From: Escherichia coli
GTDB taxonomy: Bacteria; Pseudomonadota; Gammaproteobacteria; Enterobacterales; Enterobacteriaceae
Assembly (NCBI RefSeq): GCF_011045215.1
Contig: NZ_CP049202.1
Length of the DNA stretch: 64,000 bases
Direction: 5' to 3' (one strand)
In this document: one piece after another, positions 11,294-41,376 of the stretch
Numbering within the stretch: the first letter of the stretch is position 1
How the letters are laid out: every line of letters starts with the position of its first letter
Program-made: the position numbers and the translations under genes
Notes under the pieces: generated by a model
What the model was told of the DNA's origin: nothing
Database searches by the model: none
What the model saw: the letters and a program-made list of their open reading frames with translations, nothing else

Positions 11294-14136
11294 AATGGTC
11301 CCTTCAGTTGATTCTTTTTCTCATCAATCATTTTTTTCACAGTCTCTTCTGATGGCTCAGGTATTATCTTTTGACTTTCTCGCTCTTCATTATATTTATT
11401 ATTCTGAGATAATGCTTCTGTTTTATGGTGATTTTGTAGTTCAGAATACTGTTTTCTTACAATATTTTCCTCGCCTCGGATGCTGTTCTGAGTATCTCCG
11501 ATATTACCTCGATATTCTGTGACCATATTATCAACCTGATGTTTTACATCATCACGGATATTACTGTCCTGCGTTCTTTGATCAATAATGGCCTGATGCC
11601 CCTGATGGTCAGCAATAATATCCTGGCTGCCACCACCCGAAGGTACGCTCTCCATTCCTTTACCAATATCGCCACGGGATTCACGCCAGGCATTATCAAC
11701 ACCAGGCTGTATCTGTTCCTGCACAAAAGACCAGGCCATCGCCCGACGGCGTTCTGCAATCTCCGGCGAACTGGTATTTGTCAGAATAGCTTCGGCATCC
11801 TGCGGTGCGTGTTTCATCACATACTGTGCAAACTGTTGCGACAAATCTTCACTCATCTGCCCACTCATGCTTTCAGTACGGGATGCCATTTCAGCATATT
11901 CATGGCTGCGGGTCATATTCGTCGTGTACTGGTCGTAACTCTGTTTCGCTGAGTTCAGGGCTGCAGACAGCTGGTCCACACGGGAATCGGCATTATTGTC
12001 AGTATGGCTGCCGGACTCACTGACTTTGCGACTGGTAAAGTAATCGCTGGCCTCTTTAAAGTCCTTACTGGCTTTAGCATCGATATCATGTCGAGCATCA
12101 TGGGTAGCCCTGCTGCCACTACTTGCAGAATGTGAATCATCATCCGTTCGATCAAGACTTCCCTTAAATCCGCCTCTGACACCAACTCCACCACCAACCC
12201 CAAGAATTTTAGGTTTAATCCCCCATTCAGCATGAGCATCTGCATATCCGCCATACGAGAACTTAGAACCTGTTGATGCCAGTTCCTGAGTCGCCTGCTC
12301 ATTACTGATATTATGCGCTTTCGCATAGCTTTCCACTGCACTGCGCATACGGCTGGCCATCATGGAGTCCTGTGCGCTCATCGTGCTGTCAGCGCCACCG
12401 GTGACAGAATCACTGCTCCCCCGGTTAGAACCAAACTGACTGAGCGTATTCCAGGCACTGGCAATACTGCTGCTGAACCCATGCAGGGCGCTTTCTGCTC
12501 TGTTCGATGCCTCCCGGGCCATTTCCTGTTGTGCCGCCGCAATCTGACGCGTTGCATTGATACCGACCGGTAAACGGGACATCGCTCCGCTTGCATCCAT
12601 AACCATATTACCGTCACGGGTCTGTGTGGCGGTTGCGCCACTGCCGGTCTGGTACATCATCTGACCAAACGACGTGGTGCTGTTGGTGCTCCAGCTGAAG
12701 CCGTTCACGTTTTCCGTCTGCATGTTGCCGTAGGAGTAATTACCGTCAACCACACTGCCTGCTGCACTGGCCGTCGGACTGATAGATGAAGAGGCGAAGT
12801 GGCTGTACACACTGGAAAAACCTGCGCCAAGGCCTTTTACCATCATCCATGACAACGGGGGTATCATGACAGATATATATCCGGCAGTGGACGCCAGGTC
12901 GGAGTATTTCAGCTGTATCTGAGAGAGTTCAGAGAGCACGACCGGTGCACCATTCTGCTTTGCATAGAATGTCATGGCACTGTTCAGAATGGCATACAGC
13001 AACGGCCAGGTCTGGAACCACATCAGGGCAAACACATAGCCCTTCAGTACAGACAGCGTTAACCTGTTGAAGACCGCCGCCAGTACCAGGAGCGGGAAGA
13101 TACCAATGGTAATGCCCACCAGAATGGTCTGCACCATCGGCAGGTTTCGCATCAGCACATGACCAATGGAGACATGTGCCAGACGCTGTTTCTCCATCGA
13201 CGAGGTCGTGGCCAGACTGACCAGGCTGGCGGTATCACCGTTACGGGCTGCATTACTGGTGATACCCTCTTTCAGGGCATTCATGGTGACGTTCTGGCGC
13301 ATAATATGGCTGGCAGACTGGCTGGAGCCGTAGAAATAACTGTAACTGTCACTCACCAGTTGCCTGAATAACAGGTCCGGGTCCGGTCTGCCGCCAAATA
13401 TCTGCTGGACATAATAATGCCAGGTCTTGCCTCCGGTATTCGTATCAAAATTCAGCTTATCCTTCAGTCCGACGGATGCGTCCTTACAGGACACAAACGG
13501 CTCTGAACTGTGCAGAAAACTGTAATTATTATTCGGCACCTGACGTAAAGGGCTGGGCTGAGAAAAGATTATGGTGTACGGGTCAGAGGAGGCCATCAGG
13601 TCTTCCAGCGTGTATTTGTGATTCAGGTAAATATCACCCAGCACGCAGTTCTGGACGTAGTCCTGAAACAGATTGATGATTTCCGGATTCCGGGACAGAA
13701 AATCGGTGCTTTTCACAATCAGGTTCGCCCCGAACAGCATGCCTGTCTTGCTGTAGGTGGCGCTGTCAGGCTGAGCGAACACCATCTCATAGCCGGCCAC
13801 CATTGCATGCCCGATACGGGTCGTCAGTGAAAGTGGCATCGCCAGTCCGACCGGCACATTATCCACCCGATGGACTTTGACCAGGTCACTGTTATCAATA
13901 ATCTGCACCGACGTGCGGACATTAACCAGCAGGCTGATAAGCACAAACACGGCCACCCAGCCCAGCAAATCCATCACGTTGTGCCGCTGTACCCATATCA
14001 CGGCCACCGCGAGAACAGACAATGTGAGCGCAATTTTTTCAATGGAATCCCACGTCCTGGTTCCCATAAAGGCGGCAATGGCGTTCAGGTTATTCCGCAA
14101 CCATTCACCACCGGCAATCACATAAACTTCATTCAC
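11290..14136 (-). CDS. traG: TraG mating-pair stabilisation / entry-exclusion partner (948 aa)
   Basis: N-terminus MNEVYVIAGGEWL..., N-terminal membrane domain, large periplasmic C-terminal part; track start codon reads as GTG overlapping traH stop. Confidence 0.9.
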   Translation of the reverse strand: MNEVYVIAGGEWLRNNLNAIAAFMGTRTWDSIEKIALTLSVLAVAVIWVQRHNVMDLLGWVAVFVLISLLVNVRTSVQIIDNSDLVKVHRVDNVPVGLAMPLSLTTRIGHAMVAGYEMVFAQPDSATYSKTGMLFGANLIVKSTDFLSRNPEIINLFQDYVQNCVLGDIYLNHKYTLEDLMASSDPYTIIFSQPSPLRQVPNNNYSFLHSSEPFVSCKDASVGLKDKLNFDTNTGGKTWHYYVQQIFGGRPDPDLLFRQLVSDSYSYFYGSSQSASHIMRQNVTMNALKEGITSNAARNGDTASLVSLATTSSMEKQRLAHVSIGHVLMRNLPMVQTILVGITIGIFPLLVLAAVFNRLTLSVLKGYVFALMWFQTWPLLYAILNSAMTFYAKQNGAPVVLSELSQIQLKYSDLASTAGYISVMIPPLSWMMVKGLGAGFSSVYSHFASSSISPTASAAGSVVDGNYSYGNMQTENVNGFSWSTNSTTSFGQMMYQTGSGATATQTRDGNMVMDASGAMSRLPVGINATRQIAAAQQEMAREASNRAESALHGFSSSIASAWNTLSQFGSNRGSSDSVTGGADSTMSAQDSMMASRMRSAVESYAKAHNISNEQATQELASTGSKFSYGGYADAHAEWGIKPKILGVGGGVGVRGGFKGSLDRTDDDSHSASSGSRATHDARHDIDAKASKDFKEASDYFTSRKVSESGSHTDNNADSRVDQLSAALNSAKQSYDQYTTNMTRSHEYAEMASRTESMSGQMSEDLSQQFAQYVMKHAPQDAEAILTNTSSPEIAERRRAMAWSFVQEQIQPGVDNAWRESRGDIGKGMESVPSGGGSQDIIADHQGHQAIIDQRTQDSNIRDDVKHQVDNMVTEYRGNIGDTQNSIRGEENIVRKQYSELQNHHKTEALSQNNKYNEERESQKIIPEPSEETVKKMIDEKKNQLKGPL

Positions 14137-37198: not shown

Positions 37199-37582
37199 TT
37201 ATTCATCATCATTTTTTGGAAAGAACCTTTCCATCTCAACCGACACCTTCTCTCTGATATCTTCAACCATATTGGCATATTCAAACTTCGGGTTTCCGGA
37301 AACATGAGGGCTAAGAGACTCAATACCTAAAATCTTTGCCACTGTTGACTGCGTTTTTACAACACATTCAAGAAGAAGTTTATTAAACTCTGCCTGATTA
37401 AATGCTGATTCTTTTCGTTCCATCTGCGCTTCATAAACTCGCAATCCTAACTCAAGCAACATAGAGGCAATACTTGAATAACTAACATCTTTCTCTTTTG
37501 CTCCCTCTGCTCGCCTCTGCACAGCAATAGCATTTATTTTTTCAGACACATGGTCATTAACATAAACCTGAATTTTGGCCAT
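37199..37582 (-). CDS. traM: TraM relaxosome accessory protein (127 aa)
   Basis: Translation matches remembered TraM (MAKIQVYVNDHV...), 127 aa. Confidence 0.92.
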   Translation of the reverse strand: MAKIQVYVNDHVSEKINAIAVQRRAEGAKEKDVSYSSIASMLLELGLRVYEAQMERKESAFNQAEFNKLLLECVVKTQSTVAKILGIESLSPHVSGNPKFEYANMVEDIREKVSVEMERFFPKNDDE

Positions 37583-37900: not shown

Positions 37901-38000
37901 AACTTGTTTTTGCGTGGGGTGTGGTGCTTTTGGTGGTGAGAACCACCAACCTGTTGAGCCTTTTTGTGGAGTGGGTTAAATTATTTACGGATAAAGTCAC
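37900..38000 (+). other. oriT core; F-type nic site in GCGTGGGGTGT/GGTGCT (nick at about 37922/37923), plus-strand is the transferred strand
   Basis: Sequence TTTTTGCGTGGGGTGTGGTGCTTTTGGTGGTGAGAACCACCAACCTGTTGAGCC matches the F oriT nic region as remembered, including the GGTGGTGAGAACCACC inverted repeat. Confidence 0.8.
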
Positions 38001-38013
38001 CAGAGGTGGAAAA

Positions 38014-38523
38014 ATGAAAAAATGGATGTTAGCCATCTGCCTGATGTTTATAAATGAGATCTGCCATGCCAATGATTGCTTTGATCTTTCAGGCCGGGAT
38101 TACAAAATAGATCCTGATTTACTGAGAGCAATATCATGGAAAGAATCCCGTTACCGGGTTAATGCCATCGGTATTAATCCGGTAACGGGATATGGCAGCG
38201 GACTGATGCAGGTAGATTCCCAGCATTTTAACGAACTGGCCCGCTATGGAATTAATCCGGAACATCTGACAACAGATCCCTGCATGAACATTTATACCGG
38301 TGCTTATTATCTGGCAATAGCCTTTAAAAAATGGGGCGTCTCCTGGGAGGCCGTTGGTGCATACAATGCCGGATTCAGGAAGACCGAACGCCAGAACCAG
38401 AGACGTCTTGCCTACGCATCAGATGTTTACCGGATTTATACCGGGATAAAAAGCAGTAAAGGTATCCGGATTCCGGCCACGAAGAAATCACTTCCGGAAA
38501 TTAACAGCGTGCAGAACAATTAA
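38014..38523 (+). CDS. orf169 / gene X-type lytic transglycosylase (169 aa, signal peptide)
   Basis: Signal peptide and lytic-transglycosylase-like core; first leading-region gene beside oriT as in F; ATG with GAGGTGG RBS. Confidence 0.85.
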
Positions 38524-38768
38524 TCTTACAGACATTGTCAGATACCGGTTATGCCGCAAAAGCGGCATGGAAGGCCACACACAAAAATATCATATGAGTG
38601 ACAATACTGACTGGCCGAAGCCCCGCGAAGCGGGAACCCATCTTATATATACCCGGTAACTGCGCAGCCTCCTGCCAGACCATTTTTCGCGGGCACAATA
38701 TTTACAGACAACCGGAAAGCCAGTTGATGAAATTGAGGTATATCAGACGACACAGCGATGCCGAAGAA

Positions 38769-38821
38769 TGATAATATAAGTAAAGCCCCGAAAATTTTTC
38801 GGGGCTTTACTTATATTATCA
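38769..38821. terminator. Perfect 26-bp inverted repeat with 1-nt spacer; GC stem flanked by A/T runs, probable bidirectional terminator between convergent genes
   Basis: TGATAATATAAGTAAAGCCCCGAAAA-T-TTTTCGGGGCTTTACTTATATTATCA read directly from the sequence. Confidence 0.6.
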
Positions 38822-38941
38822 TGACTTCCACTTTCTGAACTGTTCGGCAATCACCCATAACGCCTTGTTGATTCTTATATCACCATCAATACCTGTAATG
38901 GCTCTTGTCCTAGTATTTTTCCCGGAGGCACTTTGCCCCGA

Positions 38942-39640
38942 TCATCCACCTTTTATCATATTCTCCTGAACCCGCTGCCAGGTTGTCCAGAGATCGTTCT
39001 GTTTATCCTCCCAACGATGGGGAGTAATTATCTGTTCAGGCGTCACTGGCGTTTTATTTTCATCTTCATACCTGACCATCAGTGCAGCTCTGCTAAATAA
39101 ATGTTGCTCGTCACTGTTAAGATGAATTTCTTTCATCGCCTCCATATTATCAGTGACCTTATCAAAGATACCGAGTACTTCATACGCTCCCTCGATAACC
39201 TGCTCGACAATATCACCTTTATGTGGAACGCGGATTTCGCCAAAATTATTTCCGCACACCAGGCCATTTGTGCAGACAAAACGAAAAATTCCGGGGATCA
39301 TCTGATAACTGGATGAACCATCATGTGAATTAAGCAGGATAATTTCAGGAACTTCCTGCCCGTTAATATGCCCTTCCCTGCGAAGACGTAACATATGTTT
39401 ACTGTATTCGCGACGTCCCAAATCACGAACCCGACTCTGACAGGCAAAGAATGGCTGGAAACCTTCATCACGTAACTTATTGATGATATTGATTGTTGGA
39501 ATATACGTATAACGTTCACTCCGGGACTCATGTTTATCACCGGAAAATACCGAAGGCACGAACTGCATTAATTCATCATCCGTTAAAGGACGTTCACGGC
39601 GGATGGAATTATACCGACCAAAACGGGAAGCTAATCGCAT
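38942..39640 (-). CDS. DUF932-family leading-region protein (orf273-like), possibly C-terminally truncated
   Basis: MRLASRFGRYNSIRRERPLTDDELMQF... resembles the conserved DUF932 protein next to orf169 in F-like leading regions; ATG at 39640 with AGGAG RBS; appears shorter than remembered homologues. Confidence 0.5.
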   Translation of the reverse strand: MRLASRFGRYNSIRRERPLTDDELMQFVPSVFSGDKHESRSERYTYIPTINIINKLRDEGFQPFFACQSRVRDLGRREYSKHMLRLRREGHINGQEVPEIILLNSHDGSSSYQMIPGIFRFVCTNGLVCGNNFGEIRVPHKGDIVEQVIEGAYEVLGIFDKVTDNMEAMKEIHLNSDEQHLFSRAALMVRYEDENKTPVTPEQIITPHRWEDKQNDLWTTWQRVQENMIKGG

Positions 39641-39758
39641 AACAGCTACTCCTTTATGAAAGAATAAATTTAATAAAAAATTTTTCCGCTTAATATCATC
39701 CCTCCTGGTCACCATTAACAAGATTGCAACAATCAGGAGGAATATTCATCACATCCAG

Positions 39759-40045
39759 TCAGCAGATCGCCCGGATATCGAGGCCGGCACGCTTAATCTG
39801 ACGCAGGAACTGTTTGAAGTGATCGGCTTCCGCAATGTTGATATGGCGGAACTGCGTATCCACACCCCGGCTGAGCGCGTAGCTATAGCTGAAGGCCATC
39901 TTTTCCGGGTGGCTTTTGCGATATTTTTTCAGCTCAGTCAGGCTGCTGAATTCTAGGACGTCCCACTCTTCCCCGGTGTTTTTTTCTTCCCGGCAACAAG
40001 AAGCGTGTACGACGCGGTGTTAACGTGGATATTTCGGGTACTCAT
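39759..40045 (-). pseudogene. Hypothetical leading-region gene (about 95 aa) interrupted by a frameshift at an A7 homopolymer
   Basis: ATG at 40045 with AGAGGAG RBS; reading frame breaks at GGGAAGAAAAAAACACC and resumes in another frame through to a stop; span is not a multiple of three. Confidence 0.4.
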
Positions 40046-40057
40046 CCTGCTTTCTCC

Positions 40058-40620
40058 TCTCTCTGGTTTTCAGCCCCCATCATCTTTTGAGTTTCGGGAG
40101 CCGCGGTTTTGACGTTTTGCGGGGACCTGCCTTTTGTTCCCTCCGGTATTCACCATCATCTTTTTGAGAACCTTCGCCGCAAGGGGCATCACTGCCACGG
40201 CCGGAAACGACTGTCCGGGGGCAGACCGCAAAAGTTTTTGCCTGCTTCTGGGCAAAAACTTTTGCGGGATGTGCATTTCACCCCTGGACTGGCGGAGACG
40301 GTTGTGGCTGTATCAGCCCCCGGCGACAGGGGATTAAACAGGTGAATGGCACCGGACAGAACAACGGGCAGGGACCCGCCGCAGCGACGTGAAGCGCGGT
40401 TTGCGAAACGGCGTTGCCCCTTACATCCCGGCGGCCTTTTGCCGGGATGCCGGGAGCGCAGGCCACGGCGCGACAGAGGCGGCGCGACCGGAACGGTCGC
40501 TGCAAGCCCGGGGTTTCGCGTCAGGGATGGAAGCCCGCCAGGGCGGAGACAGCTTCGCTGGCTCCGTTCACGACAGCCCGCCCCGCCAGGGGGACGCCCG
40601 GAAAAGGCATAAGCAGGAGA
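40058..40620. repeat. Frpo/ssi-like GC-rich structured element, copy 1 of a roughly 0.55-kb direct repeat
   Basis: Near-identical sequence recurs at ~45456..46000; contains internal inverted repeats (CCGCAAAAGTTTTTGCC...GGCAAAAACTTTTGCGG); lies upstream of a minus-strand leading gene. Confidence 0.55.
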
Positions 40621-40943: not shown

Positions 40944-41102
40944 CTACTTACCGGATTCGTAAGCCATGAAAGCCGCCACCTCCCTGTATCCGTCTCTGTA
41001 ACGAATCTCGCACAGCGATTTTCGTGTCAGATAAGTGAATATCAACAGTGTGAGACACACGATCAACACACACCAGACAAGAGAGCTGCGTGGTAGTTTC
41101 AT
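40944..41102 (-). CDS. hok: Hok-family membrane toxin (52 aa), flmA/hok type
   Basis: [52 protein letters not shown] is near-identical to Hok. Confidence 0.9.
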
Positions 41103-41160
41103 GGCCTTCTTCTCCTTGCGCAAAGCGCGGTAAGAGGCTATCCTGATGTTGTCTAAGCAT
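40948..41160 (-). CDS. mok: Mok-type overlapping reading frame (modulator of killing)
   Basis: 70-aa ORF overlapping hok in a different frame, as in hok/mok/sok loci. Confidence 0.5.
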
Positions 41161-41210
41161 GCAGGGGCCTCGTGGGTTAATGAAAAATTAACTACGGGGC
41201 TTTTGTCCTT
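41130..41210 (+). ncRNA. sok: Sok-type antisense RNA (approximate placement only)
   Basis: Inferred from the conserved hok/sok architecture; not resolved directly from sequence. Confidence 0.3.
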
Positions 41211-41376
41211 CTGCCACACAACACGGCAACAAACCACCTTCACGTCATGAGGCAGAAAGCCTCAAGCGCCGGGCACATCATAGCCCATATCCCTGCACGC
41301 TGACCACACTCACTTTTCCTGAAAATAATCCGCTCATTCAGGCTGTTTACGGGTAATCTGTGTGATTGTTGCCGCA

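Follow-up and report, generated by a model that had tools for sequence, protein, structure and literature searches.

In a 64,000-nucleotide stretch of Escherichia coli contig NZ_CP049202.1 (assembly GCF_011045215.1; this whole stretch is called the window here), the DUF932 gene ygeB and the gene orf169 run toward each other, with a perfect 55-bp palindrome between them. The window is part of an F-like (MOBF/MPF_F) conjugative E. coli plasmid. A point mutation has cut ygeB short; the palindrome is conserved, and its two arms covary. The best explanation, which we consider probable, is that the palindrome is a bidirectional terminator-type hairpin at the 3' ends of the two convergent genes, and that the short gene beside it is an ordinary nonsense pseudogene allele of ygeB. 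This holds little new biology, as the hairpin is part of the long-known sequence of the F leading region and the truncation is a routine nonsense pseudogene; what we describe is a feature ordinary for this well-known plasmid backbone, together with a rare nonsense allele. The features on which the argument turns are as follows.

38014..38523, plus strand: orf169, also ygfA or gene X, a P19-type lytic transglycosylase of 169 amino acids (aa); Pfam SLT PF01464, E = 1.6e-21
38524..38767, no strand: non-coding spacer of 244 nt from the orf169 stop codon to the palindrome, presumed 3' untranslated region (UTR) of orf169
38768..38822, both strands: perfect 55-bp palindrome, with arms at 38768-38794 and 38796-38822 (27 nt each) and a 1-nt centre
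38819..38821, minus strand: ancestral stop codon TGA of ygeB/yubP, within the outer edge of the right arm of the palindrome
38822..38941, minus strand: codons 234-273 of ygeB, intact and in frame, no longer translated
38942..38944, minus strand: premature stop TGA at codon 233, due to a single substitution at 38943
38945..39640, minus strand: translated remnant of ygeB (the same gene as F orf273 and yubP), 232 aa; Pfam PF06067, E = 1.3e-50

A point mutation truncates ygeB

The open reading frame (ORF) of ygeB begins with the ATG at 39640 and ends with ...QENMIKGG, followed by the TGA at 38944-38942. A first reading of this region, made from the sequence only and called the sequence-only reading below, remarked that the gene seems shorter than its homologues, and this is correct: the product has 232 aa, compared with 272-277 aa in nearly all of the best 120 homologues, and the Pfam model PF06067 is incompletely covered (positions 1-210 of 227 here; 1-227 in an intact 273-aa relative). 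The same reading suggested a deletion or rearrangement at this point, a suggestion that we do not retain. When the stop codon is read through, the translation continues as ...GG*SGQSASGKNTRTRAITGIDGDIRINKALWVIAEQFRKWKS*, that is, with 40 further sense codons up to a second stop at 38821-38819, which is the end of the 822-nt coding sequence (CDS) in intact relatives (locus position 1920, equivalent to window position 38819). At 38943 the plus strand has C here and A in the relatives with Leu233, corresponding to a change of TTA to TGA (T to G) on the coding strand. The window differs from seven of eight near-identical plasmids at 4-13 positions in 1351 nt, and the eighth has a 1-bp insertion. 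Because the interval is colinear with intact relatives at every base, the downstream frame is kept and 38943 is the sole inactivating difference, the lesion is a nonsense point mutation rather than a deletion or rearrangement. As far as its sequence tells, the gene belongs to the DUF932 family and is present here as a pseudogene allele of an ordinary kind.

In place and orientation, the gene matches ygeB of F, lying between ygeA and the palindrome and next to orf169 and oriT, and its identity to the intact alleles of E. coli plasmids is about 97%. Unlike the F gene, it has the TGA at codon 233, which leaves 232 of 273 aa, and its partner ygeA is also frameshifted.

The missing tail includes seven columns that are invariant among 39 homologues (T245, R246, D254, N258, A260, L261, and W262) and eight that are nearly so. 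In the AlphaFold (AF2) model of YubP, with a mean predicted local distance difference test score (pLDDT) of 74, it is formed by a beta-hairpin at 234-244 (strands 234-236 and 242-244) and a C-terminal helix at 251-272, over which the block pLDDT is 84-89. Since the lost tail is both conserved and, in the model, structured, the 232-aa product is probably inactive, and the truncated YgeB has probably lost its function. A window-specific substitution, R236Q (position 38934), lies three codons past the stop and is present in 0 of the 10 near-identical relatives compared, which is consistent with drift in an untranslated tail. Foldseek returned no match for the YubP fold in the PDB at E <= 0.001, phmmer against the PDB gave weak epimerase matches only, and NCBIfam only a sub-threshold match to TIGR03299.

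To count alleles in PLSDB, short queries were used that give a megablast seed only when the allele is present. Of 4573 matching PLSDB plasmids, 3 had L233*, as did 2 of 5426 complete E. coli genomes; in both RefSeq plasmids, the prokaryotic genome annotation pipeline (PGAP) calls the gene a pseudogene with an "internal stop." Two other stops are more frequent in PLSDB, W221* with 22 plasmids and Q225* with nine. Each of the five database plasmids with L233* has W221* as well, and the window has L233* alone; this L233*-only haplotype with R236Q is absent from PLSDB and from complete RefSeq E. coli genomes and was seen on two Logan contigs only. These two contigs are independent and encode the exact 232-aa ORF, compared with 275 contigs for the 220-aa ORF that ends at W221*. 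As L233* is present in three PLSDB and two RefSeq plasmids and on two Logan contigs, we take it to be real and not a sequencing error.

When sites 38943 and 38979 are compared with loci L001, L005, L007, L014, and L015, all four combinations occur in near-identical backbones: neither stop, W221*, L233*, and both. The sites are only 36 bp apart, and the presence of all four combinations therefore implies recombination or recurrent mutation.

Lesions elsewhere in the gene are independent of these and include Q204*, L74*, Q68*, and a frameshift near codon 34, and the copy in a pSLT-like plasmid of Salmonella has decayed heavily. Of 36 full-length matches in an evenly spread sample, five had no annotated CDS, and all five (5/5) were pseudogenes. 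With at least seven distinct lesion positions in the loci examined, decay of ygeB is frequent and spread along the gene. An apparent clustering of nonsense mutations in the C-terminal quarter was considered and rejected, since it was based on four events and vanished with Q68*, L74*, and the frameshift near codon 34.

Anatomy and conservation of the palindrome

The arms of the palindrome are 100% complementary according to a repeat search, and in a scan of all 64 kb of the window for inverted repeats (arms of 16 nt or more, 12 nt or less apart), it is the longest and the sole perfect one. The sequence-only reading had described a perfect 26-bp repeat with a 1-nt spacer at 38769..38821; perfection and spacer stand, and the extent has to be enlarged by one pair on each side. 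It had also noted that the stem is longer than that of a typical terminator, which the 27-bp arms bear out. A GC core (GCCCCG/CGGGGC) is set between A/T-rich arms, the outer A/T-rich part being 17 bp. Folded as RNA, the element reaches -48.2 kcal/mol (z = -11.9), and as single-stranded DNA (ssDNA) -29.2 kcal/mol (z = -11.3); 0 of 200 shuffles reach either value. Owing to the symmetry, the same hairpin arises from either strand. The GC core is followed in both transcripts by CUUUACUUAUAUUAU, where 9 of 15 positions are U, and preceded by a matching A-rich run.

The palindrome is identical in 8 of the 8 closest relatives, and because these include plasmids with an intact and with a broken gene, it has no connection with the truncation. 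Plasmid F, pHN3A11, and plasmids of Klebsiella and Salmonella have the palindrome too, and it has been kept in thousands of F-like plasmids, F included. The sequence-only reading had allowed for homologues that share both the protein length and the palindrome as a conserved terminator: they do have the same palindrome, as a conserved element at the 3' end, but not the same protein length.

Such differences as there are among close plasmids are found in the middle. In the case of F, there is a single A-to-T change at the centre; the pHN3A11 group and one Klebsiella plasmid have an extra A there, giving perfect arms of 28+28; and other E. coli plasmids have centres of A5T4 or A4T6. Across the central A/T run (38787-38803), compared with F, L010, L027, and L028, the forms A3T6, A4T5, A5T4, A5T5, and A4T6 were observed, all with the stem intact. 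This variation of the centre points to slippage or flipping that is confined to the loop.

In three diverged loci, from Salmonella or other hosts, a perfect stem of 26-27 bp has been kept by means of compensatory double substitutions. Examples are ATGAT/ATCAT becoming ATAAT/ATTAT, ATAAG/CTTAT becoming ACCAG/CTGGT, CCCCG/CGGGG becoming CCCGG/CCGGG, and GCC/GGC becoming GGC/GCC. In the covariation count, which covers only nine related sequences, 7 of the 27 pairs have changed on both sides and 98.4% of the cells are paired; none of 500 shuffles (0/500) reached the observed pairing, and registers slid along the sequence were 43-49% paired. One cell only holds a G-U pair. Since a G-U pair on one strand is an A-C mismatch on the other, exclusively Watson-Crick pairing is what would be required of a hairpin that has to form in both transcripts; it is also what a hairpin in DNA would need.

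In more distant F-like plasmids, unrelated hairpins are found at the same place, directly 3' of the DUF932 stop codon. Locus L025 has a canonical GC stem and then T8 at the position of the palindrome, and L019 and L026 have shorter stems there, followed by a DUF5983 gene.

Several other identities were considered for the palindrome. A dispersed repeat resembling a repetitive extragenic palindrome (REP) or a miniature inverted-repeat transposable element (MITE) was rejected, as there is a single copy in the window; in the relatives examined, it is likewise found at the orf169/ygeB junction only, the "2 places per record" being the two strands of one palindrome. Rfam gave only sub-threshold chance matches for the hairpin (mir-1302, His_leader, RsmY, and PyrG_leader). 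Promoter hexamers near the palindrome are not above chance (6 sites versus 5.9 expected), and the sole promoter-like match, at 38747-38775, agrees at 9 of 12 positions.

The ygeA-ygeB operon and the probable role of the hairpin

The transcription units that meet at the palindrome can be named with the help of Couturier et al. 2023 (PMC9849209), in which the recombineering primers carry homology arms that map to the window. The arm of OL514 (delta-Frpo-ygeA-ygeB) is the palindrome itself, which marks the end of the early operon; that of OL508 (delta-ygeA) falls at window 39718-39757, where ygeA has its downstream boundary; and that of OL621 (ygfA-sfgfp) equals orf169 at its 3' end. Because the arms map there, ygfA is orf169, ygeB is the DUF932 gene, named "UPF0380 protein YubP" in the source protein collection, and ygeA is the 95-aa ORF upstream. 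In the early operon Frpo1-ygeA-ygeB of the leading region, ygeB comes last. A search of the literature for DUF932 in the leading region, orf273/orf169, and yubP found nothing usable. Two further features of the operon are needed here.

39759..40045, minus strand: ygeA homologue (95 aa in F), frameshifted, one base lost in a homopolymer
40090-40410, plus strand: Frpo1-type large ssDNA stem-loop upstream of ygeA-ygeB, at the position of Frpo1 in PMC9849209

The stem-loop at about 40090-40410 is Frpo1-like by its position, which is that of Frpo1 in F, and would be the start of the unit that ends at the palindrome; as ssDNA, 40046-40420 folds with -102.6 kcal/mol (z = -10.4). The lesion in ygeA is in the T-run at 39979-39985, which is T7 here versus T8 in F. 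PGAP marks ygeA as "frameshifted" in relatives, and the T7 allele was found in 159 of 2569 matching PLSDB plasmids (in blastn mode) and in all of the closest relatives.

According to PMC9849209, Frpo1, which is upstream of ygeA and ygeB, drives both genes from ssDNA, and ygfA, which is opposite to the other leading genes, is expressed only after conversion to double-stranded DNA. Conjugation efficiency in that study was 92.6% for the wild type, 3.9% for delta-ygeA, and 32.7% for delta-Frpo1-ygeAB, and delta-ygeB alone could not be constructed. Judged by its reading frames, this plasmid is a naturally occurring ygeA- ygeB- double mutant, and the two genes affected are those downstream of Frpo1 that were recently reported as critical for F conjugation. 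Three natural plasmids, L028 (NZ_AP027403.1), L029 (NZ_CP031707.1), and L013 (NZ_CP107016.1), have L74*, Q68*, and the codon-34 frameshift beside an intact ygeA, and these early lesions contrast with the failure to obtain delta-ygeB in F. Taken together, the natural alleles (Q68*, L74*, Q204*, W221*, Q225*, L233*, and the frameshift) mean that loss of intact YgeB is tolerated in the wild, with YgeA intact or not, which should be useful to anyone dissecting the ygeA-ygeB operon.

As for the palindrome, in the explanation that we prefer, it would close the Frpo1-ygeA-ygeB unit on the minus strand and the converging orf169/ygfA transcript on the plus strand, and the hairpin would stop or pause RNA polymerase arriving from either side. 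The position suits this: orf169 (plus) and the DUF932 gene (minus) are convergent, as the sequence-only reading had it, and the stem has the ancestral ygeB stop codon at its base. That the hairpin is so long and fully symmetric is explained by the A-rich run upstream, which in either transcript pairs with the U-rich CUUUACUUAUAUUAU. Asked whether this is a terminator or a potentially cruciform-forming sequence, we would settle for a conserved hairpin at the 3' ends; that it terminates transcription we infer from the sequence.

A class of bidirectional terminators that encode a hairpin between convergent genes of E. coli has been described (bioRxiv 10.1101/2022.10.23.513370, citing Ju et al. 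2019). The palindrome shares with this class (e.g., ynaJ-uspE) a convergent gene pair, one symmetric hairpin encoded on both strands, a GC core with, in both directions, an A-rich run upstream and what may count as a U-rich run downstream, and a position that abuts a stop codon. It differs in its unusually long and perfect 27-bp stem, in its interrupted U-tract, in having one of the genes 244 nt away, and in that one of the transcripts is made from an ssDNA template early in conjugation. It can also be likened to the classical bidirectional intrinsic terminators. A terminator at the ygeB/orf169 junction is not mentioned in the literature on the F leading region that was searched.

A number of points weigh against this explanation. 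The simple consensus scan flagged a terminator-like structure on the minus strand only (in three registers), the U-tract is interrupted by A and C, and, if the full 27-bp stem forms, the sequence that trails it is only weakly U-rich. Between the orf169 stop codon and the hairpin there are 244 nt, so that the 3' UTR would have to be long, and the perfect outer A/T-rich 17 bp are more than termination needs. Template-switch "palindrome correction" is an established process that is able to keep palindromes perfect, and the perfection and covariation could stem partly from it rather than from selection. With regard to the pseudogene, TGA is a somewhat leaky stop, and the truncated protein might keep partial function.

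Three other readings deserve discussion, beginning with a role of the hairpin that is played mainly at the DNA level in conjugation, which we regard as unlikely. The sequence GTGGGGTGT/GGTGC is found at 37914-37927 on the plus strand, and corresponds to the oriT nick sequence known from work on TraI of F, with the nick at about 37922/37923. Because this sequence is on the plus strand and the leading region is to its right, the plus strand is the transferred strand (T-strand), and the orientation argument in PMC9849209 agrees. The T-strand would then bear a 27-bp hairpin about 0.85 kb from the nick that would end Frpo1-driven transcription on ssDNA, or pause or prime the synthesis of the complementary strand. 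The ssDNA folding energy and the Watson-Crick-only covariation speak for such a role, as do the transcription of ygeA-ygeB from ssDNA (PMC9849209) and a report that stem-loops of the F leading strand can stall complementary-strand synthesis and that Frpo transcripts can prime it, with early conversion at ygeB (bioRxiv 10.64898/2026.01.09.698686). However, a bidirectional RNA hairpin would be expected to covary in just the same way, the element invariably adjoins a stop codon, ordinary terminators (including the GC stem with T8) replace it in other plasmids, and the promoter hexamers are at chance level. Like Frpo/ssi elements, the palindrome is an inverted repeat that folds strongly and lies in the leading region, on the transferred strand. 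These ssDNA promoters are, in the case of Frpo, about 300 nt long and imperfect, and the palindrome, of only 55 bp, is perfect, lacks a -35/-10 pair in its stem, and is at the 3' rather than the 5' end of the operon; as a candidate Frpo/ssi promoter it was rejected for its size, its perfection, and its place at the operon 3' end. It is doubtful, too, that the palindrome is tuned for the single-stranded phase, folding in both the T-strand template and the nascent RNA so as to end ygeA-ygeB transcription. If that were true, it might set the RNA 3' end that primes synthesis towards oriT, or a pause point.

We think it improbable that the hairpin is chiefly an element of RNA stability or processing, either as an RNase III substrate or as a 3' protection that sets the half-life of the ygeB and orf169 messenger RNAs. 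RNase III needs roughly two helical turns, which the 27-bp stem exceeds, the compensatory changes keep the whole stem paired beyond the GC core, and there is a second long hairpin in orf169 (38145-38191, -37.1 kcal/mol). On the other hand, terminator hairpins protect 3' ends too, so that the roles are not exclusive, and plasmids with short hairpins at the same position manage without a long double-stranded RNA stem. The remaining reading concerns the truncation and has it that the change was adaptive, either with loss of intact YgeB selected in some hosts or with that loss compensating the ygeA frameshift. Some observations would suit this: W221*, Q225*, and L233* occur in near-identical backbones, all with the ygeA frameshift; all four combinations of W221* and L233* exist; ygeB pseudogenes are frequent (5/36 in the spread sample); and in F the deletion of ygeA alone leaves a lower conjugation efficiency than that of the whole Frpo1-ygeAB unit (3.9% versus 32.7%, PMC9849209). 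We nevertheless give it little credence. Wider sampling spreads the lesions over the gene (Q68*, L74*, the codon-34 frameshift, Q204*, and the pSLT-type decay), several of them occur with an intact ygeA, and many of the records are clonal farm isolates. The rate of nonsense alleles in the ygeA-frameshift background is at most about 31/159, similar to about 5/36. Compensation of the ygeA frameshift in particular was rejected, since pseudogene rates are similar in both backgrounds, with no clear enrichment.

The surrounding plasmid, orf169, and the spacer

The segment studied here is common to about 4570 PLSDB plasmids, mostly at 90-99% identity; the best reaches 99.7%, and none of the about 4570 is identical. 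Other features of the window are as follows.

Minus strand, leftward: tra operon
13311-13396, plus strand: antisense-to-traG RNA (AS-traG), Rfam match above the gathering score
37002-37110: FinP and the traJ 5' UTR
37199-37582: traM
about 41100-41271, in the leading region, which runs rightward: hok/sok, then psiA, psiB, a ParB-like gene, and ssb
41100-41271, minus strand: sok antitoxin RNA of the hok/sok (flm) module, Rfam match above the gathering score

The homologues of orf169 are annotated as SLT-domain proteins in all relatives compared. Some RefSeq models of the transglycosylase have 200 aa and begin with a GTG at 37921, which falls within the oriT nick sequence; these models are probably annotated too long, and the ATG at 38014 (169 aa) fits the historical orf169. 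Within the coding region, on the plus strand, the hairpin at 38145-38191 has 22 bp, with arms that are 91% complementary. Gene 19 of R1, the homologue of orf169, is reportedly controlled by RNase III, though a literature search gave nothing usable on this, and the hairpin may match the RNase III site of that gene.

The 244-nt spacer contains no annotated CDS in any relative compared and no Rfam family at threshold. A small ORF at 38598-38771 (57 aa), which ends at the left edge of the palindrome, was rejected because indels in the Salmonella homologue break the frame; in the pSLT-like Salmonella plasmid, spacer indels (12 and 8 nt) disrupt all candidate small ORFs. In L019/L020 (Serratia) and L026 (Klebsiella variicola), the DUF932 and SLT genes are separated by a DUF5983 gene of about 100 aa, and the E. 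coli and Salmonella F/pSLT group is without this intervening gene. The idea that the spacer is a decayed DUF5983 gene was dropped, since tblastn showed no similarity. In the Salmonella locus L021 (2874-3137), homology stops exactly at 38768, and unrelated sequence replaces the spacer; therefore, the palindrome forms a module boundary and goes together with ygeB, and the spacer is a distinct module that varies.

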